A DNA stretch of 64,000 nt, from positions 12,693 through 76,692 of the forward strand of contig JBFMDZ010000001.1 in assembly GCA_040753555.1 (NCBI GenBank), in the 5' to 3' direction. Below are positions 1 through 12,770 of the stretch, one piece after another; the stretch's first letter is position 1, and each line of letters begins with the position of its first letter. The stretch comes from a bacterium (GTDB lineage: Bacteria > UBA9089 > UBA9088). Made by a program: the position numbers and the translations under genes. The notes below the pieces were generated by a model. It did no database searches. It saw only the letters and a program-made list of their open reading frames with translations, and had not been told where the DNA came from.

Positions 1-2727
1 ATCTTTATCCCTTAATCCTTCTTTGATTGCACTAATTGCCCATTCATCCTTTATCCCTAAATTAGCTATGGCAGAGATAGCAGGGCCTCGCACCAATAAA
101 TCTTTATCCCTTAATCCTTCTTTGATTGCACTAATTGCCCAGCCATCCTTTATCCCTAATTTAGCTATGGCAAGGATAGCAGAGTGTCGCACAAATTCAT
201 CTTCATCCCTTAATCCTTGCTTAATTGCCTCAATTGCCCATTCATCCTTTATCCCTAAATTAGCTATGGCAAGGACAAGGATAGCAGAGTGTCGCCTCCA
301 TTTATCTTTATCTTTTAATCCTCCTTTAATTGCTTTAATTGCCCATTCATCCTTTATCCCTAATTTAGCTATGGCAGAGATAGCATAGGTTCGCACCCAT
401 GAATATTCATCCCTTAATCCTTGCTTAATTGCCTCAATTGCCCATTCATCCTTTATCCCTAAATCAGCTATGGCAGAGATAGCAGAACCTTGTGATTTTG
501 ATAAAATCGCCTCCCTTATTCTCTCCCTAACCCTTTCTATACTTGAGGCATCTTTAAGTATTCTTGCTGCACGGCTACTTAATCCTCCTATTTTACCAAA
601 GAGAAATTCTATAAGAGAGGAGGTTATCTCATCCACAAGCCCTATCTCTACATTTGCACTACTTGCTAAGCATCTTCCAGCAAGGAGAATATTTTTCTTT
701 AAAATGCCTTCATTGATTTTATCGCCTTTTCCCTCTAATATTTTCTTAAGATAATCTGAGACCCTTTTTGTGCTTGCCTGGGTTATCCCCAATTCAGAGG
801 AAACCAAGATAAATACCTCCTCCCAACGAGAGGAATAAGAAAATTCCTTTAAATATTCAAAATAAAGCTCACCCCTTACAAGCTCAATAGCACAGAGGTA
901 TTCCTCAAAGGATAAATGGGCAAACCCCCAAAAACCCCTTCCTTTTTCCTCCAATAATCCACTTGCCTCTTTAAGCCTTTCTAAAAAATTATTCAGGATT
1001 TCCTCTATTCTTTCTTTAGCTATACCTTTTTCAAGTAGCTTTTGTTTAATAAAATCCCTTAAATTATCCTCAGGGATTATACCGGCAGGGAATTCCTTGT
1101 GTAGCTTAAGGGCTAAGGGAGCAAGGATAGGAATTGCCTCTGTTCTAAAGTCTATTCTCTGTGCCTCAGGCTGGATAATGCTGATACTCCTTGCTTGATG
1201 CCAGGTTTCCACTAGGGTCTGAATCATTCGTTCAAAGAGCTGAATGCGGTAATTGGGTAGATGGGCTTCTGTTTTATGGATAAGAATGGTAAGGGTTAAG
1301 AGAAATGGGTTGGCAATAAAGGGAGAAAGCTGTGGCTCATTTAATACTTCTATAAGCTTTTCTGCCTCATCTTTAGCCATTCTTTCTCCATCTTCACCTT
1401 TACCCCTTAGCCCCTGCTCAATCGCAATCATCCATTTCCTTATCATTGGCTTTGCCTCTTCAAGGGTTAAATCCTCAATAAAATAAATATCCCTATTTTC
1501 AAAAGAAAGCCCGGGAAAGCCAATTATTCGGCTGGTAATTATAAATCTAGCCTTTGGATAAGCTTGGATAAAGGATTCTATTAAGCCTGCTATTTCCCTC
1601 CTTTCTCTATCAGAGGGCACCTCATCCATTCCATCAAAGAGAAATATTGCCCTCTCTATTTCCTCATCAATAAATCTTGAAATATCAATGCCAAGTATTT
1701 TGAAATATAGAATAATTGCCTCCTTTACCCCAATTTGCCTCTTATTTTCCTGCCATATCTGACAGAGATGGCCAACGGATATAGGAAAGGGGAAAAGGGG
1801 CTCGTCTAAGGAAAGCCTCTCCTTAATGTCTATCCTTCCACTTACACAGGATAAAGCAAGGTATTTTATCAAGGTGCTCTTTCCTGCCCCAGGAGAGCCA
1901 AGGATAACCGCATTCTTTCTTCTCTTTAATACCTCTACTAGGCTTAAGGCAGATAAGGCTGGCGCTCTCCTTACAATAATATCTTCTTTGGTAAGACTCT
2001 CTATATCCTTAAAATCTCTCATCCATATATCAACATACTCTGTCCTAAACTTAAGGGGTGAAAATATATCAAAGAGGTTAATAGATATAAGGTGTTCCTG
2101 TCTTAAACCACGAGGGATAATTTTTCCATACCTTTGCTTGATAAAATTAAGGTAGTCTCTCTTTGCCGGATAGGTATCTTGAGAAGGAGGGATAAACATA
2201 TCTTCTTTATCAATCTTACGGGTCTTTGGATAGACAAATAAGGGTGATTTATCCTTAATAGTTGTTCCCAGAAAGCTAAATTCCTCCTTTTCTCTATCAG
2301 GAAGGCTTAACCATCCCTCCTCAGTTAAGACAAGGGAGTCTTTAGGGCAGGCACTTTCTGAATGTCCTGCGAGGTTAAACTGGTCTGATTGAATTTTCCC
2401 AAGCTCTTTTTTAAAATTAACCTTATCTACGCCAATGCCAATCCTGATGTGTGCCTCATATTCTAATGTCCTTCTAATTTCTTCAAGGAGCTTTTTTCCG
2501 GCACAAATGGCATTATAGAGGCCATCCTCTCCCAGGAAATAAACGGTTGCACCATCCCCTTGAAACTCAAATGGTGCACAATTAAATCCTGTTAGAGTAT
2601 TTTCTACAAGGTCATGGTATGCTTTGATGTCATCTTTAAGATTAGTAGAACCTGCCAGATCAAACTTAAAGAGGGCAATGGTTACTAAATCTTTCTCTTT
2701 TATGCCTAATCTTTCATACCATTCCAT
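1..2727 (-). CDS. Signal-transduction STAND NTPase: N-terminal class III nucleotide cyclase-like domain, NACHT/NB-ARC P-loop NTPase, C-terminal HEAT (PBS-lyase type) repeats. Partial; the C-terminus runs past the window start.
   Basis: Reverse-strand translation is open from 2727 (MEWYERLGIKEKDLVTIALFKFDLAGSTN...GDGATVYF, a cyclase-like motif). It shows a verified Walker A (VILGSPGAGKSTL, around 1870-1908) and Walker B (RAIFLFDGMDEV, around 1625-1660). The ~60-bp periodic repeats at 1-760 encode repeated 'GIKDEWAIEAIKQGLRDED..VR..AI.AIAKL' HEAT units. Confidence 0.7.
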   Translation of the reverse strand, partial: MEWYERLGIKEKDLVTIALFKFDLAGSTNLKDDIKAYHDLVENTLTGFNCAPFEFQGDGATVYFLGEDGLYNAICAGKKLLEEIRRTLEYEAHIRIGIGVDKVNFKKELGKIQSDQFNLAGHSESACPKDSLVLTEEGWLSLPDREKEEFSFLGTTIKDKSPLFVYPKTRKIDKEDMFIPPSQDTYPAKRDYLNFIKQRYGKIIPRGLRQEHLISINLFDIFSPLKFRTEYVDIWMRDFKDIESLTKEDIIVRRAPALSALSLVEVLKRRKNAVILGSPGAGKSTLIKYLALSCVSGRIDIKERLSLDEPLFPFPISVGHLCQIWQENKRQIGVKEAIILYFKILGIDISRFIDEEIERAIFLFDGMDEVPSDRERREIAGLIESFIQAYPKARFIITSRIIGFPGLSFENRDIYFIEDLTLEEAKPMIRKWMIAIEQGLRGKGEDGERMAKDEAEKLIEVLNEPQLSPFIANPFLLTLTILIHKTEAHLPNYRIQLFERMIQTLVETWHQARSISIIQPEAQRIDFRTEAIPILAPLALKLHKEFPAGIIPEDNLRDFIKQKLLEKGIAKERIEEILNNFLERLKEASGLLEEKGRGFWGFAHLSFEEYLCAIELVRGELYFEYLKEFSYSSRWEEVFILVSSELGITQASTKRVSDYLKKILEGKGDKINEGILKKNILLAGRCLASSANVEIGLVDEITSSLIEFLFGKIGGLSSRAARILKDASSIERVRERIREAILSKSQGSAISAIADLGIKDEWAIEAIKQGLRDEYSWVRTYAISAIAKLGIKDEWAIKAIKGGLKDKDKWRRHSAILVLAIANLGIKDEWAIEAIKQGLRDEDEFVRHSAILAIAKLGIKDGWAISAIKEGLRDKDLLVRGPAISAIANLGIKDEWAISAIKEGLRDKD

Positions 2728-3865
2728 ATCTTTTGAAGACAAGCCTAAATTCTCCGCCTATAAGGCTTATCTCTGGCGAAGGCAAACCTGCCTTTTTCAT
2801 TAGCCGAAACATTGTGGGAATGCCCAATCCAACATTATGAACCAATTTTAGCCTTAAAGCATGGGCAAAGATGATACGGTTTCTAACCGCATGGCATCCC
2901 AAATATAGCTCCTCAAGCCTTAATGTATTTAACAACCTGCCCGGGCTTAATACCTCTATCCTGTTATCAAAAACAAAAAGCCTGATTTGGGAGGGAAGAT
3001 TATACTCCCGGTGAACCAATGCATTAACAAGCCCTTCCTGAATTGCCGATAATAGAGGATTGGGTTCTGAAGCAGGTTTAAGAATCTCCTCCATTATCCC
3101 AAGATGCCTTTTTACAAACCTTGTTGCCTCCCTTTCCTGCTCATCAATCCTTCCTTCAATCTCTATCCTTTCAAGATACTTATGGCCACCTTCAAGGTCT
3201 CCCTCTGGAAACCTGATTGCGGTAATCTTTGCATAGGGTAGCCTTTTCTGGGGCTCTTTGCCATAGCAGATAAGCCCGCCAAGTGTTAGGTCGTCTTCAT
3301 AATTGCTTATTATTCCACAATCTTTTAGCCTTACCTTAGATGGTTCATCTACTATGCATAGCTCAGGCCAAGCCTTGCCAAGATAATCTAGGTCAAGAAA
3401 AGAGATTCCTGTATCTAAAACCGGTGCTTCATCAGGGTAAAAAGAGCCTGTAGATTGAAAGAGCCTCGCCAGCTCTTGTCTACTAATAATCCTTTTACTT
3501 GCTCCCACACGGATATAATAGACCCCTTTGTTTGTGCGGTATGGCCGGTCTAGCCCTTTAGGAATTCTAATCGCAAGGATGGTATGGCCATTTATCTTTA
3601 GCTTTTCCCAGGTAAGAAGCAAAGAGGGTTCTATATTATTTTGAGAAATATTTTCTATCAATTGTGTTGCCCTATCCATTGCTTTCTTTTCATCAAGTGT
3701 AGCAAGGGCTTCTCCCTTATCCGAAACACCAAGCAGGATAGTTCCACCCTCAGAGTTTGCCATAGCGACAATTTCAGCCGAGAGGTCATCGGGATGGGGA
3801 ATGTCTGATTTAAACTCCCACTTAGAATCTTCACCTATTTCCAATTGATCTTCTATTTTACCCAT
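2714..3865 (-). CDS. AlbA_2 (Schlafen-like) DNA-binding domain plus HATPase_c_4 protein. Putative ATP-dependent DNA-binding regulator, RecG C-terminal-like family.
   Basis: N-terminus WEFKSDIP...AMANSEGGTILLGV is the AlbA_2 signature. C-terminus LVNALVHREY is a HATPase_c_4-like motif. It overlaps the downstream STAND gene by 14 nt and the upstream hdrC-like gene by 13 nt. Confidence 0.55.
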   Translation of the reverse strand: MGKIEDQLEIGEDSKWEFKSDIPHPDDLSAEIVAMANSEGGTILLGVSDKGEALATLDEKKAMDRATQLIENISQNNIEPSLLLTWEKLKINGHTILAIRIPKGLDRPYRTNKGVYYIRVGASKRIISRQELARLFQSTGSFYPDEAPVLDTGISFLDLDYLGKAWPELCIVDEPSKVRLKDCGIISNYEDDLTLGGLICYGKEPQKRLPYAKITAIRFPEGDLEGGHKYLERIEIEGRIDEQEREATRFVKRHLGIMEEILKPASEPNPLLSAIQEGLVNALVHREYNLPSQIRLFVFDNRIEVLSPGRLLNTLRLEELYLGCHAVRNRIIFAHALRLKLVHNVGLGIPTMFRLMKKAGLPSPEISLIGGEFRLVFKRYGMV

Positions 3866-4311
3866 TTCTTTGGAAACAAGGAAATCTTTCCCTTTTTAAA
3901 CATAAGAAGACCAGCAAATATATCCTTAAATGGATTTCCCGATAAAAGATTATACTTAAGAATAAGGCCTAATTCAAATATCCTTCCATTTTTATTTATC
4001 TCATCCTTAAATGTCTTATGGAAGAGAAAGACATTTTTTAAAGCTGGCTTTATATTTTCTTGTTCTGATATGAGCCTTAATCTGCCCATAACACCTGCTA
4101 AATCTATTTCCTTTGGGCATCTAACACTACAGGTTTTGCAAAATGCACAAAGCCATATTGTCTTGCTTTTTAATGCAAAATCTATTTTATCAAGCTGAAT
4201 AAACCTGATAAGCCGATTAGGTGTGTAATCCATAAATTGGGCAATCGGACACCCGGCACTACATTTCCCACATTGGTAGCACTTTGCCAGATCGCTCTTT
4301 ATCGCCTCCAT
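3853..4311 (-). CDS. hdrC: HdrC-like 4Fe-4S dicluster protein (heterodisulfide reductase subunit C family).
   Basis: Two CxxCxxCxxxCP motifs (CYQCGKCSAGCP, CAFCKTCSVRCP). Size about 150 aa. Confidence 0.5.
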   Translation of the reverse strand: MEAIKSDLAKCYQCGKCSAGCPIAQFMDYTPNRLIRFIQLDKIDFALKSKTIWLCAFCKTCSVRCPKEIDLAGVMGRLRLISEQENIKPALKNVFLFHKTFKDEINKNGRIFELGLILKYNLLSGNPFKDIFAGLLMFKKGKISLFPKKWVK

Positions 4312-6479: not shown

Positions 6480-7208
6480 TTACAAATTTTTAACCAACTC
6501 CATTAGCCCTTTTGCATTCTTTATAGCATATGCTTCAAAGTCATTATTGAAATAGCAATGGACATCAATGCCATCCTTTAAAAATCCATTTATTTCATAA
6601 GCTAATTGCTTAAGCTCATCTAAAGAATAATCATAATTATACCAGCTAGTTGCTCCATGCATCCTGATGTAGACAAAAGGGCTGGTTGCTACAATATGTG
6701 TTTCAATCTTTGGCGCACTTACAATGCAGGAGGCAATATTGTTTTCCCCTAAAAGGCTAAATGTTTCATTATCAAACCAGGAATTATTCCGAAACTCAAT
6801 GCAATAAGAAAAATTATTGGGAAGCTCCTTAATAAAGCCTTTAAGCCTTGGAATATCCTTTTTAAGCGATGGTGGAAGCTGGAATAAAACAATAGATAAT
6901 TTTTCTTTTAGCCCTTTTATCCTATCTAAAAATATCTTAAGGGCTTCACTACAATTAACAAGCTTTAATAGATGGGTAATTCTACGAGAAGCCTTAAGGA
7001 CAAACTTAAAATTCTTTGGGCTTCTTCTATACCATCCCTTTATCATGCCCTCAAATGGAAGGCGATAGAATGAGCTATTTATCTCTACGCTTTGAAAATG
7101 CTCGCTATAGAATGAAAGCATCTCCTCCCTAGCAAGGGAAGGAGGATAAAAATTTCCATACCAATGCTCATAGCTAAAACCCGATGTCCCAATAAAAACA
7201 TTAGGCAT
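6480..7208 (-). CDS. DUF72 (YecE-like) protein.
   Basis: GTSGFSYEHWYGNFYP N-terminal signature. Confidence 0.7.
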   Translation of the reverse strand: MPNVFIGTSGFSYEHWYGNFYPPSLAREEMLSFYSEHFQSVEINSSFYRLPFEGMIKGWYRRSPKNFKFVLKASRRITHLLKLVNCSEALKIFLDRIKGLKEKLSIVLFQLPPSLKKDIPRLKGFIKELPNNFSYCIEFRNNSWFDNETFSLLGENNIASCIVSAPKIETHIVATSPFVYIRMHGATSWYNYDYSLDELKQLAYEINGFLKDGIDVHCYFNNDFEAYAIKNAKGLMELVKNL

Positions 7209-7438: not shown

Positions 7439-8602
7439 CTATCCTATTAAAAAATCTTTAGTAAGATATTCTTCAGAAACTTTCTTTTCTGCGGGTAAAT
7501 ATATTCTCACTTGAATATCTAATTTTGATAAATACTTACACATTAAAGCTCCAACATCTTGCCACTTTAAATTCCCAAGTCCACAGCCAAGTGCAGGCAA
7601 AGCCAGAGACTTTATCCCTTCTTTCTTATAGTTATCAACTATCCAATTCAACCCTTTTTCAATCCCTTTGATATCTCCACCTTCTTTCCAATGTTGTTTA
7701 GTTGGAAAAAGTAAAAACCATGTCGCACCATTTCCATTTTTTAAGGTAGATGGCTCATCAGCTAATTGATAATCAAGAGAACCTTCTCGCTTGTAAAGAT
7801 ATGGTTTCCCCATTTGTAATGTATGATTTCTGCATACATATTGATATTGAACATAGACATCGGGAAACTGCCATTTTGCACGAGAGGCAAGACCTTTTCC
7901 CATAATACCAATGCAATTAACACTAATTGTAAGTGTTTGCATTCTTGAAAAGAACATATCTCCGTCTGTTACATATAACAATGGGGTAATTTCTATCTCA
8001 CGAGAAGGTTTGAAAAATATATTTGGTTGGGGAACAACAGATATAGGGAACGATGATAAAAATTCTTTTATTTTATTAGCAATATTATGATCTGCCACAT
8101 AAATCGTATGAATATATTCTGGTAAAACCATTTCTGGAACAAGACACTCTGCCATTATTTTCCTTTTATCGCCGCTTTCTTCAGTCCACCATTCTTTTTC
8201 AAGTATTTTTGTTAATTCATTTAGTAGTGCCTGCTTTCCTTCTTTAGCTGGAAGTATCTCTGTAGCAAAACTAGCTGCATTACCGGTTGAGATAAAAATA
8301 TCATCACGGTTCAAAATGTCTTTCTTAACCGCAATAACTACAATATCTTCAATGGGTTTTTCGCATATAACCCTATATAACATAGGATTTCGTGGTTGAA
8401 AATATAGGTTTGCAAAATCCCACAAATTTTTACCATTTAATAAAATTTTATTACGACGACTTGCTATAATTTCTTTATCATAAATTGGTGTATAGTTGAT
8501 TCGGCGTTCTTCCACCTGATGATGAGATAAAATGCCATAGTTTAATATGGAAGACAAATTATCAATATGTGTGATATAATATAAATGTTTGATTGACGCC
8601 AT
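7439..8602 (-). CDS. Fusion protein: DarT-like ssDNA ADP-ribosyltransferase domain (DUF4433) plus TARG1/DarG-like macrodomain.
   Basis: N-terminus LYYITHIDNLSSILNYGILSHHQ...LYFQPRNPMLY matches the DUF4433/DarT signature. The C-terminal ~170 aa align to the TARG1/DarG macrodomain (ISVNCIGIMGKGLA..., WFLLFPTKQHW, LALPALGCGLGNLKW, IQVRIYLP). Confidence 0.6.
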   Translation of the reverse strand: MASIKHLYYITHIDNLSSILNYGILSHHQVEERRINYTPIYDKEIIASRRNKILLNGKNLWDFANLYFQPRNPMLYRVICEKPIEDIVVIAVKKDILNRDDIFISTGNAASFATEILPAKEGKQALLNELTKILEKEWWTEESGDKRKIMAECLVPEMVLPEYIHTIYVADHNIANKIKEFLSSFPISVVPQPNIFFKPSREIEITPLLYVTDGDMFFSRMQTLTISVNCIGIMGKGLASRAKWQFPDVYVQYQYVCRNHTLQMGKPYLYKREGSLDYQLADEPSTLKNGNGATWFLLFPTKQHWKEGGDIKGIEKGLNWIVDNYKKEGIKSLALPALGCGLGNLKWQDVGALMCKYLSKLDIQVRIYLPAEKKVSEEYLTKDFLIG

Positions 8603-9223
8603 TTTTCCTCCTAAATTTCCAATATTACACCCGCATCATTGCCAAATATGTCCACCACCCGCACAGCAATGGTTCTATTCTTTCTCTTATCCAGTGTTTC
8701 TGTTGCGATGATTGGGACTGTCTTTGCCTTTTTGCCATTTTCCCTGAATACCTGCCACTAGCTTTTGAAGGTGCAGCCATCGTAATCCCAGTCAATTGCC
8801 CAGTAATCTATTAAAACAGCGAAATTGTCCTTTGCCACCTTCATTAAAGCATTATAAGTTTCTTGCTCTCTGGCTGATGTTCGGCTAACCGTAATGTCCA
8901 TTAAGGCATATGTAAATAAGATTTATCTTGCCTTCATATCCTTGAGCAAGGAGGGCTTGCATTGCCAGAAGATTATCGCCCCAGATAAGCCTATTCATCT
9001 TTTGCTTATCAATCTCTTCTTCACCCAATAAACCATCAGTGAAAGATATAAGAATCTGTCTTTTATACTGCGGGTTTGGAATAACCACCTCTGCTGTCTG
9101 GAATTCTATATCCTTTGGATTAGGTGCCCTTCTTGGCTTTGTATCCCAAACCAGCCTTGCACTATCCTTTTTCCTCTGATTATTGCCATTAGCCATCCTT
9201 ATCTCTCTAATATTTCCTTCCAA
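8603..9223 (-). pseudogene. Internally deleted remnant of an N6/N4 DNA methyltransferase (RM-system mod-like).
   Basis: 8885-9223 encodes an MTase N-terminus (NRLIWGDNLLAMQALL...GKINLIYI) that ends prematurely. 8603-8880 encodes out-of-frame C-terminal MTase-like pieces (TVPIIATETLDKRKNRTIAVRVVDIFGNDAGVILEI). The catalytic core is absent. Confidence 0.5.
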
Positions 9224-9969
9224 TAGGGGTCAAATCTCTCTTTAGCAGATTGTAATGAGGGAAATTGTTTTTCGCAGACATCGCTAAAGCGTGCTAGGAC
9301 GCGGCGGTTGATTTTTTCCTGATTTTCAAAAATAGCTGTAGCAACAAAGGGAACTCCAAATTTCTCATATTGAAGACAGGTTATGGTAGCATCCCGACAT
9401 CTATCATTATTTAAAACAGCAAAAACAAAAAGTGGCCGTTTTGCTCCATTAATCCGACAATCAACGATATATTTTTTTGCTACATCGTGTTGGAGATCGC
9501 TATAATTAAATACTCGCCTATCCTCTGGTATCTTTTCCTCTAAAAGGGCTTTAAAATCTTCAAGGAATGCTCCTCGCACACCCTCTTTTGTCCAATAAGA
9601 AATGTCTGTTATCTTAATTAGCCCTTGAATAAAACTATAAAGGGCATCACCATAATTTTCATTTTCAATATAAGCCCTTAACTCACCTTCAATATTTTTG
9701 ATTTTGTAAGACCCAAGAACTGTATCTATAATTTTAGCCCGTCTTCCTTTTTCAATATCAATTTCATCATAACTTATATGCATAAAAGTATGCCCCTCAT
9801 CGCTTAAATACCAATGTCCATTTTCTTGCTTTAAGAGAATGGGCAGGTGGTCTCCATCATCAAACATAAAGGGAGTAAACACGATATACCTGTCTATCCC
9901 TTCGCTTTCAAGACTAATTTTTTCGCAAACCTTTTGACGAAATATTTGGACGATAGTTTCAGGTATCAT
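9199..9969 (-). CDS. Hypothetical protein, DUF1828/DUF1829-like. This family is often linked to RM loci.
   Basis: 256-aa ORF recalled as DUF1828/1829-like; no defining motif was identified. It overlaps the MTase remnant. Confidence 0.3.
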   Translation of the reverse strand: MIPETIVQIFRQKVCEKISLESEGIDRYIVFTPFMFDDGDHLPILLKQENGHWYLSDEGHTFMHISYDEIDIEKGRRAKIIDTVLGSYKIKNIEGELRAYIENENYGDALYSFIQGLIKITDISYWTKEGVRGAFLEDFKALLEEKIPEDRRVFNYSDLQHDVAKKYIVDCRINGAKRPLFVFAVLNNDRCRDATITCLQYEKFGVPFVATAIFENQEKINRRVLARFSDVCEKQFPSLQSAKERFDPYWKEILER

Positions 9970-11308: not shown

Positions 11309-11572
11309 CTAAGGAGATATTTCAGAATAGGAAACCCCGCAATCAGGACAGGATAGGGAGGATGAAAAAACAAGCTCATCCCTTCCAGCAAGGACAATAA
11401 GGCTTCCCTTTGAAATGGCTATTCCTGTCTCAACAGAGCCAGAAAGCCCGGTGATTACTGTGAGCTTATTCCTTGGGATTTCTACATCAATATTCTTAAG
11501 GTTATGCTCCCTAGCACCTTTGATAATAATATTTTCTTTCATAATCCTAAAAAGACAAAAAGGTCTCCTCAA
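11309..11572 (-). pseudogene. uvrA: UvrA remnant. The N-terminal 35 aa are fused to a zinc-finger fragment; the rest of the ~940-aa protein is deleted.
   Basis: [32 protein letters not shown] is followed directly by ...[13 protein letters not shown]. Confidence 0.55.
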
Positions 11573-12770
11573 GCCACATTATGTATCCTTTTATATCTTG
11601 ACTAAAGACATCCTTTGATAAAGGGAAATCTTCTTCACACAAAGAGACTATTCTTCCCTCTTTAATCTTTAATTTAGAAAATAGATCCTTGAATCTCTTT
11701 ATTGGGTCTGCCATCTTAAGATTAATGGTCTTGGACATCTTAAATTCAACAGGATACAATGCCTTATCCCTTTCTATAATCAAATCAATCTCTAATCCAT
11801 TATGGGTTCTTAAATAGAAGAGATTTGGTCTTTGTCCATGGTTAAAGAAGAACTTAACTGTCTCCTGGATGCAATAATTTTCAAAAAGGCTTCCTGCCAT
11901 TGGCCCTTTTATCAAATGCCCCTCATCCTTTAATCCTGTGAGGTAGCAGACCAAACCGCTGTCTAGGAAATAGACCTTTGGGTTTTTGGTAATCCTTTTT
12001 CCCAGATTCTGATAATAGGCTGGCAGAAGGTAAATTAGCTGGCTTGCTTCCAATGCAGAAATCCACTTTTTAACGGTATTTACTGCTACCCCTAAATCTA
12101 AAGAAAGGCTACTTAGATTTAAAACTTGGGCGCAACGGCTGGCTAATAGCTGTAAGAATCTCTGAAAATCCCTTAAATTACCTATGTTATAAAGAGAGCG
12201 AATATCCCTTTCTAGGTATGTAGAGATATAACTTCCATACCAACGAGAAGAATCCCTCTTTTCAAGGCAAACTTCAGGGAAGGTTCCTTGTAGACAACTA
12301 TGGATAAAATAGTCCTGGCTAGTCATTGATTTTAGAAAGGAGATATTTTCTATCTCCCCTTTAGCAAATGGCAATAAGACTAAAATACCAACCCGACCAA
12401 CTAATGTTTCGGTTAGATTTTTCATCAAATTAAAGGCACAAGAACCTGTCATAATGAAACGACCCTTTTTTTGCCTATCTTTATCAATAAGCATCTTTAT
12501 AAAGGAGAGAATTTCTGGCACATATTGAATTTCATCAAATATTACCCTATCTCCTGCTTTTTCTAAGAAGAACTTTGGGTCTAAAAGTGCCCTTTCTCGT
12601 AATAACGGGTCATCAAAGGAAAGAATTTTATGCGACTTGGCAAAGATATGTGCAAGTAAAGTAGACTTTCCTGTCTGCCGTGGGCCAGTTAAGACAACGG
12701 CAGGGAATTCTTTAACAAAGGCTTTAAGTGATTCCTCAATTTGACGATGAATATACACCTTCTTTACCAT
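11547..12770 (-). CDS. AAA+ ATPase with DUF4143 domain (COG1373 family).
   Basis: [16 protein letters not shown]-loop, 407 aa. Confidence 0.7.

Follow-up and report, generated by a model that had tools for sequence, protein, structure and literature searches.

An overlapping, conserved gene pair encoding a stand-alone Schlatpase and a cyclase-homology NACHT-HEAT protein

Genes and Domains at the Locus

The stretch of DNA analysed here, called the window below, comprises 64,000 nucleotides (nt) of contig JBFMDZ010000001.1 (assembly GCA_040753555.1, positions 12,693 to 76,692 of the forward strand) from a bacterium of the UBA9089; UBA9088 lineage. Its first 3865 nt carry, on the minus strand, two overlapping genes that proved to be strictly linked in all relatives in which the DNA upstream was available. 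The upstream gene, called the partner gene, encodes a Schlatpase, which is the name for the PF04326 and PF13749 combination (bioRxiv 10.64898/2026.05.29.728809). The downstream gene encodes a STAND protein composed of a class III cyclase-homology domain (CHD), a NACHT NTPase, and HEAT repeats. The open reading frames (ORFs) and domains, with positions in the proteins given in amino acids (aa), are the following:

1..2727, minus strand: CHD-NACHT-HEAT STAND gene; the first 909 of its 1020 codons are in the window, and it runs off the window start
2203..2727, minus strand: class III CHD, aa 1-~175, found by profile search, AlphaFold2 model, and Foldseek
1429..1908, minus strand: NACHT P-loop NTPase core, aa 274-433; Pfam NACHT E = 2.8e-9, over the curated cut-off
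1..525, minus strand: C-terminal HEAT repeats, aa ~735-909 in the window and on to aa 1020 outside it; Pfam HEAT_2 E = 6.9e-16
2714..3865, minus strand: partner gene, a 383-aa stand-alone Schlatpase with an SLFN/AlbA_2 nuclease domain, a linker domain, and a GHKL ATPase, no helix-turn-helix (HTH)
3488..3832, minus strand: SLFN_AlbA_2 domain of the partner, aa 12-126; Pfam E = 3.1e-25 (PF04326)
2717..3073, minus strand: GHKL (HATPase_c_4) ATP-binding domain of the partner, aa ~265-383; Pfam match at aa 292-377, E = 2.4e-17 (PF13749)
2714..2727, minus strand: 14-nt overlap of the two genes; the partner TGA (2716-2714) lies inside the STAND ORF, in a different frame

A preliminary description of the window, made from the sequence without database searches, had read the minus-strand ORF starting at 2727 as one polypeptide with a cyclase-like domain, a NACHT NTPase, and HEAT repeats, preceded by an AlbA_2 plus HATPase_c_4 gene overlapping it by 14 nt. 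The coordinates, the motifs, and the overlap (between the partner TGA and the ATG at 2727) were all correct, and the NACHT, HEAT, AlbA_2, and HATPase_c_4 calls agree with the Pfam matches listed above. The translation of the reverse strand of positions 1-2727 gave 909 codons free of stops. The STAND ORF starts with the ATG at 2727-2725; an alternative TTG start at 2742, preceded by GGAG, was picked by the gene caller on an identical Logan contig. The motifs quoted earlier were found at aa 15-28 (VTIALFKFDLAGST) and aa 57-64 (GDGATVYF) of the N-terminal domain, and at aa 274-286 (VILGSPGAGKSTL) and aa 362-370 (FLFDGMDEV) of the NACHT part.

The STAND protein had also been expected to continue past position 1, and it does so by 111 residues. 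The C-terminus was taken from the protein database, since the Logan contig (L001) is not as long as the window. For this, we used the full-length protein P0001 (1020 aa), which is 100% identical to the window portion and is recorded as 'MAG: HEAT repeat domain-containing protein [bacterium]' (MAG, metagenome-assembled genome) from a 94.8-kb contig. The residues outside the window are more HEAT repeats ending in ...YEALWRLLE, with no extra domain. The layout of the whole protein is CHD at aa 1-~175, NACHT module at ~250-720, and HEAT at 735-1020. No HTH was found by the Pfam scan or in the full sequence, in which the HEAT repeats run up to the last residue.

The Walker A (GSPGAGKST, K283) and Walker B (LFDGMDE; D365, D368, E369) motifs of the NACHT core are intact, and residues G277, P279, G280, G282, K283, T285, D365, G366, D368, and E369 are invariant in 12 homologues. 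The helical and winged-helix part of the module extends to about aa 720 (nt ~568). The protein also has a Pfam match to nSTAND3 (3.2e-6). The same tripartite layout is seen in the wider family, as NACHT was matched in 43 and HEAT_2 in 34 of the 45 members scanned.

The HEAT repeats are presumed to be the sensor of the STAND protein. Their units are encoded by tandem DNA repeats with a period of 99 nt (33 aa), 4.8 copies, and 82% matches (Tandem Repeats Finder; window 1-490). This suggests a recent duplication of units in the presumed sensor. The same repeats may account for the breaking of assemblies, such as Logan contig L001, inside the STAND gene.

The N-Terminal Domain of the STAND Protein

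Standard searches did not detect a cyclase in this protein. No Guanylate_cyc match was found by Pfam at E <= 0.1 in the window STAND protein, and in 45 relatives (E <= 0.01), the 25 most-matched of the 57 Pfam families detected included none for cyclases. The single N-domain had no cyclase match in Pfam or NCBIfam, and its phmmer search against the PDB sequences returned nothing. A word-indexed homologue search with the N-domain alone returned nothing either; the family was retrieved only by a 700-aa query and an exhaustive HMMER scan.

Meanwhile, a profile built from 34 diverse members of the CHD family matched solved cyclases among the PDB sequences, namely 3mr7 (5.2e-14), Ma1120 (4e-12), CyaB (7e-12), and Rv1900c (1e-11), as well as mammalian AC5/8/9 and the solved Pycsar uridylate (9e-7) and cytidylate (2e-5) cyclases. 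The AlphaFold2 model of the CHD (pLDDT 94.8, pTM 0.90) was then compared with the PDB using Foldseek. The top 50 matches were all class III adenylyl/guanylyl cyclases with a probability of 1.0, and the query- and target-normalised TM-scores were mostly 0.5-0.74. The N-terminal domain is a class III cyclase homologue at the level of both profile and fold, though Pfam misses it, and the cyclase-like domain of the preliminary description is confirmed in spite of the failure of the Guanylate_cyc model.

The catalytic positions of the CHD were mapped from HMMER alignments to the solved cyclases and from the family alignments. Of the two metal-binding Asp residues, D23 is invariant, and D58 of the GDG motif is at least 90% conserved, with Glu in a few of the 34 sequences; the two align with the FxDxxG(F/S)T and GDG motifs of 3mr7 and Ma1120. 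The position of the transition-state Asn corresponds to N118, which is N or D across the family. At the position of the transition-state Arg there is a near-invariant His (H122), and the G121-H122 dyad is at least 90% conserved in the 34 members. The substrate-specifying Lys corresponds to E54 in the close family (N, H, or S in a distant subgroup), and the substrate-specifying Asp to K111. As His replaces Arg and the substrate pair is non-canonical, the catalysis and the product of the CHD are uncertain. Nevertheless, the conserved D23, G57-D58, and G121-H122 argue for a working rather than a decayed nucleotide-binding site. Judging from these alignments, the CHD is a divergent cyclase subfamily with a His at the catalytic Arg position that is missed by the current Pfam models.

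The PADLOC model PycC gave a weak match (2.8e-4) to one family member, P0011, and none to the window protein. An outlier of the family, P0082, lacks the G-H dyad in its divergent CHD, and this domain is preceded by an FHA-like extension of ~134 aa at the N-terminus.

The Partner Protein

The preliminary description had taken the partner for a DNA-binding protein and had seen no effector nuclease in the window. The partner, however, contains the nuclease motif E(x)4(D/E)xK (as defined in bioRxiv 10.64898/2026.05.29.728809) in the form E12-DSKW-E17-F18-K19, and is likely the effector itself. Its Schlafen box reads VAMAN (A36, N37), versus SAFAN, and is followed by G40, G41, G46, and D49. The residues of the nuclease motif and these Gly and Asp positions are invariant in 14 linked partners, in which N37 is likewise present in 14/14 and A36 in 13/14. 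The residues of the GHKL N-box (E277, N281, A282, H285, R286), G1 (P308/G309), and G2 (G346/G348) are invariant in 17/17 linked partners. Most of the nuclease and GHKL motif residues are also invariant or at least 90% conserved in 40 wider homologues.

The AlphaFold2 model of the partner (pLDDT 87.8) matched 3lmm over its whole length in Foldseek (8e-21). The N-terminal domain resembled the nuclease domains of mammalian SLFN11/12/13/14 and the SAMD9 tRNase, and the C-terminal domain resembled the histidine-kinase CA and the PDK/BCK GHKL domains. Only SLFN_AlbA_2 and HATPase_c_4 were found in the domain scan of the partner, with no match to cNMP_binding (cNMP, cyclic nucleoside monophosphate), transmembrane (TM), or TIR models. 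The partner also lacks the C-terminal winged HTH (wHTH) that its longer homologues carry, and its identification as an HTH transcription factor was rejected for this reason. The partner is most likely a metal-dependent Schlafen-type RNase, as predicted from its motifs, and this describes it better than 'DNA-binding protein' does. By analogy with characterised Schlafens, we consider it moderately probable that it acts as an RNase effector. In SLFN-pAgo, the SLFN domain cleaves tRNA, and the binding of ATP to GHKL drives the formation of the active tetramer (bioRxiv 10.64898/2026.05.29.728809). Schlatpases make up ~59% of roughly 100,000 prokaryotic Schlafen proteins, and most of them are small proteins that lack further domains and for which an activator is not known (10.64898/2026.05.29.728809).

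Linkage of the Two Genes

The conservation of the pair was examined by searches from either gene. The Schlatpase gene was located directly upstream of the STAND gene, on the same strand, in 18 of the 18 loci with upstream DNA available, so the tight pairing noted in the preliminary description holds in the relatives as well. The linked loci of the close family are that of the window and five others, L002-L006; these five belong to unclassified MAGs and Candidatus Firestonebacteria and encode STANDs that are 42-84% identical. A GC-rich subgroup, with a CHD only ~25-30% identical to that of the window, showed the same linkage in 12 of 12 metagenomic loci, of which 11 are distinct. The pair in L102 was reached by starting from a partner homologue, and three further STAND-partner pairs are implied by contigs of matching length.

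The two genes abut or overlap in all but one locus. The junctions of the other loci (n = 17) range from a 4-nt overlap up to a spacer of a few nt (1-6 nt), the exception being L005 with a spacer of 393 nt. Relative to the first position of the CHD profile, the partner stop lies at -3 to +32 nt in 16 of the 17 loci measured.

Since fused Schlatpase-NACHT proteins exist and the two ORFs overlap in different frames, one might suppose that the adjacency is incidental, or that the pair is one frameshifted gene, a decayed fusion, or an artefact of annotation or assembly. However, the split was seen in 18 independent loci from different assemblies, the junctions differ (overlaps of 14 nt and 4 nt, spacers of 1-6 nt, and one of 393 nt), each ORF has its own start codon, and both ORFs keep invariant catalytic motifs. 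A single frameshifted gene is effectively refuted by the split across 18 loci with varied junctions, and we regard all explanations of this kind as extremely improbable. We conclude that the two genes very probably constitute one functional two-gene unit.

Distribution and Mosaic Structure

The CHD family is rare: among 1.84 billion representatives scanned exhaustively with HMMER, only 57 clusters matched at E <= 1e-3, nearly all of them ~800-1200 aa long with the domain at the N-terminus. In a GTDB scan with full-length alignment, 79 NACHT-HEAT loci were found, and the CHD and the partner were present only in MAG210 (the same contig as L006); the remaining loci had different N-terminal architectures. 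Viral contigs and plasmids yielded no family member; the former hold only NACHT relatives that are 21-24% identical, and the latter gave one weak, unrelated match.

Genes were called on one or both outer sides of the pair in five of the relatives' loci, and these outer neighbours are housekeeping genes that differ from locus to locus. The relatives' flanks include Ldh/DJ-1, PPDK, CbiM, PPIase, and PNP. On the upstream side, the pair is adjoined in annotated loci other than the window by Ldh, PNP, a SurA-like protein, or a CHD fragment. The differences among the flanking genes indicate that the pair is a mobile cassette. The GC content of the pair in the window is 39-41%, versus 33-35% for its neighbours.

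In L004, a 227-nt stretch (6563-6790) directly upstream of the partner gene repeats the first ~76 codons of the STAND gene at 93% DNA identity. The 5' end of the CHD is thus present as a direct repeat on either side of the partner gene in this locus, possibly as a trace of a recombination or duplication of the cassette.

The comparison of the window proteins with their relatives revealed a mosaic. The identity to L005/P0012 is 75-77% in the partner and 66-71% in the CHD, versus 33% in the NACHT module. Meanwhile, the identity to the STANDs P0003-P0011 and their partners is ~30-35% in the partner and ~30-35% in the CHD, versus 52-71% in the NACHT module. The identity switches at aa ~170-185, which is the CHD/NACHT boundary. 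These values show recombination that swaps a block of partner plus CHD between NACHT-HEAT backbones. Such a block exchange is consistent with a coupling of the partner and the CHD, and mosaicism is typical of conflict systems. The identities of the partner correlated with those of the CHD (Spearman 0.85) and the NACHT module (0.58), but the pairs are phylogenetically non-independent and adjacency suffices to produce this, so the correlation was not used as proof.

In a rough neighbour-joining tree (40 bootstraps), the linked partners were placed in two exclusive clades, and Schlatpases of other or unchecked context were located between them. Clade A together with the GC-rich group had a bootstrap value of 80%, and clade B, in which all members of known context are linked, had 100%. 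The related Schlatpases outside the linked clades include one in a methyltransferase/SMC-like/ResIII operon and one apparently alone in Clostridia. The former, P0090, is the closest non-linked relative of the window partner (41% identity). Its operon (L098, 1163-9659) has the order N6_N4 methyltransferase, SMC-like AAA protein, Schlatpase, and ResIII helicase with 4-nt overlaps, which is a restriction/BREX-like context. Another arrangement of a Schlatpase and a NACHT protein was seen in a Methanophagales archaeon MAG, where a Schlatpase-like gene (L069, 4196-5413, minus strand; 311 bits to the partner profile) lies divergently ~590 nt upstream of a NACHT gene without a detectable CHD.

The housekeeping genes called as neighbours in the relatives' annotated loci would fit a role outside defence, in which a housekeeping STAND-cyclase producing cAMP or cGMP acts with an AlbA_2/GHKL nucleic-acid-binding regulator. 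The pair may also be co-transcribed with the rpoZ-gmk-hdrC-like genes in the window, and class III cyclase-STAND fusions have regulatory roles in Actinobacteria. However, the rare and sporadic distribution of the family, the different genomic context at every locus, the recombination at a domain boundary, and the DNA-level tandem repeats of the sensor HEAT units all speak against such signalling. In addition, the partner has an intact Schlafen nuclease site and no HTH, the STAND protein has no output HTH, and the characterised prokaryotic Schlafens are defence nucleases (PMC13056530, PMC13462974). We therefore regard a non-defence role as improbable, and consider that the pair probably serves in conflict or defence, most likely against viruses.

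Relation to Known Systems

The closest parallels are found among the bacterial NACHT (bNACHT) proteins. Kibby et al. list cNMP cyclase and Schlafen among the NACHT-associated effector domains and HEAT among the sensor repeats (bioRxiv 10.1101/2022.07.19.500537). Their Table S1 contains ACYC+NACHT proteins with an N-terminal cyclase (e.g., WP_160097371.1 from Kibdelosporangium, and WP_012828448.1), a fused AlbA_2+HATPase_c_4+NACHT protein (Chlorobium TLU54208.1), and HATPase_c_4+DrHyd+NACHT(+FGS) proteins; according to the same study, bNACHT genes are rarely in operons, and those operons are poorly conserved. The window STAND protein shares with bNACHT proteins an N-terminal enzymatic domain, a central NACHT, and C-terminal repeats. 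The order Schlatpase, enzymatic domain, NACHT, and sensor of the Kibby fusions is also the order of this operon, and its occurrence in one polypeptide constitutes a Rosetta-stone link between the Schlatpase and the NACHT protein. The differences are that the Schlatpase is here a separate, strictly linked gene instead of a fused domain, and that the N-terminus of the NACHT protein is a divergent cyclase domain unrecognised by Pfam.

In SLFN-pAgo (RzAgo), as in the partner, the Schlafen box and the E(x)4(D/E)xK motif are part of an SLFN_AlbA_2 domain, after which comes a PF13749 GHKL domain. Two other prokaryotic Schlafens are of interest here, as the defence nuclease SLFN-Ig is switched on by a fused Ig-like sensor (PMC13056530), and Cash (SLFN-Csx15) is switched on by the cyclic nucleotide cA4 through Csx15 (PMC13462974). 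In contrast to all three, the sensor is here a separate STAND protein, and the partner is not fused to a pAgo, Ig, or Csx15 domain. Unlike Cash, it has no known cyclic-nucleotide sensor domain. The authors of the RzAgo study reported no conserved gene partners (10.64898/2026.05.29.728809), whereas this Schlatpase lineage has an obligate one.

With Pycsar/Pucsar, the pair has in common a class III-type cyclase next to an effector gene and the logic, also proposed below, of a cNMP that activates the effector. However, the cyclase is here fused to NACHT-HEAT and is not stand-alone, the effector has no cNMP-binding domain, TM, or TIR, and the genes overlap in the order effector then cyclase. Membership in Pycsar was rejected, as there is no cNMP-binding effector.

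In the Rv0386-type proteins of mycobacteria and other actinobacteria, a class III cyclase forms the N-terminus, and a STAND-type NTPase and helical repeats come after it. The window protein resembles them in this combination, and the preliminary description had likened it to the mycobacterial cyclase-ATPase-TPR proteins. The likeness is one of analogy and not of family, since the window protein has NACHT and HEAT instead of TPR, no LuxR HTH, an obligate Schlafen-nuclease partner, and a divergent cyclase subfamily with His for the catalytic Arg.

Thus, NACHT proteins with cNMP cyclase N-termini, Schlafen defence nucleases, and Schlatpase-NACHT fusions are already known. As far as we found in the literature searched, cyclase- or Schlatpase-bearing NACHTs have not been mechanistically characterised. 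We found no description there of a split, overlapping, strictly conserved operon of Schlatpase and CHD-NACHT-HEAT, nor of the His-bearing CHD subfamily, nor of the block-wise exchange of partner and CHD.

Proposed Mechanism

The data show the identities of the domains, the conservation of the catalytic motifs, the strict linkage of the genes, and a cassette that is mobile and mosaic, and from this we infer what the pair may do. Our best explanation, which we put forward tentatively, is an NLR-like two-protein conflict module in which a sensor would act, by means of a nucleotide made by the CHD, on a Schlafen RNase. The sensor and cyclase part of the preliminary description thus still leads, whereas its DNA-binding partner did not hold, as the partner has a nuclease motif and no wHTH.

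According to this explanation, the C-terminal HEAT repeats would recognise an invader-derived ligand, as suggested by the bacterial NACHT/Avs architecture. The NACHT NTPase would then oligomerise and unite the N-terminal CHDs, with this induced proximity as the on-switch. Class III cyclases have their active site at the dimer interface and are active only as dimers. For this reason, oligomerisation would be a natural switch for the CHD. In the next and weakest step, the activated CHD would make a nucleotide signal from a nucleoside triphosphate (NTP), and this signal would switch on the co-translated partner. The Schlatpase is proposed as the effector RNase because it is the only other conserved component. 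By analogy with SLFN-pAgo, Cash, and SLFN-Ig, this RNase, with its assembly governed by GHKL, would cleave tRNA or other RNA and arrest the infected cell. Coupling through a cyclase-made nucleotide is possible, at somewhat less than an even chance. We are more doubtful of the narrower proposal that an induced-proximity, His-bearing cyclase makes a cyclic or modified nucleotide that directly switches on the GHKL-Schlafen tRNase of the overlapping upstream gene.

Several observations weigh against this explanation. In the family alignment, the CHD lacks the canonical N-x-x-x-R, the transition-state Arg being replaced by His, and its two substrate-specifying residues, E/K here and variable in the family, are neither K/D (ATP) nor E/C (GTP). 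No cNMP-binding domain (CAP/GAF/CARF/SAVED-like) was detected in the partner by the Pfam scan. No linkage-specific conserved residues or ligand pocket were evident when the linked partners were compared with a broader Schlatpase set; most of their conserved residues are shared by this set, which consists mostly of proteins of unchecked genomic context. A single crossover at the domain boundary alone can give the co-inheritance of partner and CHD, as both are adjacent. The pair is not in PADLOC v2, which gave weak generic matches only, and outside this window it is not in recognisable defence islands. Finally, fused Schlatpase-NACHT proteins without a cyclase exist, so that NACHT proximity alone can, by analogy, drive a Schlatpase.

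The last point leads to an alternative without a diffusible signal. The Schlatpase would bind the STAND protein, possibly on the CHD, and would be activated by clustering when the NACHT oligomerises. The CHD may then be a parallel second effector in a DrHyd-like position, acting by NTP depletion or cNMP overproduction, or a nucleotide-binding docking platform. The AlbA_2+HATPase_c_4+NACHT and HATPase_c_4+DrHyd+NACHT(+FGS) fusions of Kibby Table S1 provide precedents for such recruitment. Start and stop overlap in nearly all loci, which suggests that the two proteins are co-translated and made in near-equimolar amounts, as is typical of complexes. Both the lack of a recognisable cNMP sensor domain in the partner and the absence of conserved residues that stand out with linkage are in line with recruitment. 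Moreover, the SLFN activity in RzAgo depends on the oligomeric geometry (10.64898/2026.05.29.728809), and some cyclase domains of conflict systems are inactive (Kaur et al. 2020). However, pure docking leaves unexplained the near-invariant metal Asp pair and the G-H dyad across sequences that are ~25% identical. The two lineages of linked partners in the neighbour-joining tree also fit a generic signal better than a co-evolved interface. Given these points, we consider recruitment without a signal rather unlikely.

The demonstration that nucleases of the Schlafen type act as antiviral effectors in prokaryotes dates only from 2025-2026. The locus gives one lineage of stand-alone Schlatpases an obligate and identifiable upstream controller, the cyclase-NACHT-HEAT protein, and the long-standing question of how a stand-alone Schlatpase is switched on becomes directly testable. 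Comparative genomics has catalogued cyclase effector domains on bacterial NLR-like proteins without a mechanism, and the locus would also provide a functional example of these. If the nucleotide coupling is true, this would be the first pathway from an NLR through a second messenger to a Schlafen and a new mode of ligand control for the abundant stand-alone Schlatpases. If the coupling is physical recruitment only, the pair would be a modest addition, i.e., a split version of the known Schlatpase-NACHT fusions.

Neighbouring Genes in the Window

The other features of interest upstream of the pair are the following:

3853-4311, minus strand: hdrC-like ORF, 152 aa, with two 4Fe-4S motifs; overlaps the Schlatpase gene by 13 nt
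7439-8602, minus strand: DarT-DarG fusion ORF, 387 aa; DarT at aa 5-197, DarG macrodomain at aa 211-377
9199-9969, minus strand: DUF1828 gene; PADLOC candidate PDC-M24B, 7e-21
11547-12770, minus strand: AAA_14+DUF4143 gene; PADLOC PDC-S01, 2.5e-98

The neighbours of the pair in the window are housekeeping genes (hdrC-like, rpoZ, gmk, truA, nitroreductase, and DUF72) that are not conserved with it. The hdrC-like gene has rpoZ on one side and the Schlatpase gene on the other; it matches TIGR03290 at 2.4e-18, which falls well short of the curated cut-off, and no HdrA/B neighbours were found in the region examined. Its overlap with the partner gene, mentioned in the preliminary description, is real but local to this genome. 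It was rejected as a member of the unit, since it is beside the pair in no other annotated locus. No terminator-like site was found between the rpoZ-gmk-hdrC-like genes and the pair, and the ORFs overlap. The promoter scan was at the level of chance (13 found versus 13.3 expected) and was not used as proof.

DarT and DarG are normally separate proteins. In the window, the DarT DNA ADP-ribosyltransferase toxin domain (PADLOC 3.6e-38, NCBIfam 4.3e-27) is fused to the DarG macrodomain antitoxin (6e-45 and 6.3e-41 in PADLOC and NCBIfam, respectively). An ORF at 8885-9223 beside this defence-like patch had no Pfam match. The preliminary description had raised the question of whether the pair sits in a defence island. 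It is not in a classical one, and the relatives' neighbours are housekeeping genes; in this genome, however, the DarTG fusion and the two PADLOC candidates, DUF1828 and AAA_14/DUF4143 (7.4-12.8 kb), are 3.6-9 kb away, so that the pair is near a small defence-like patch and not inside one.

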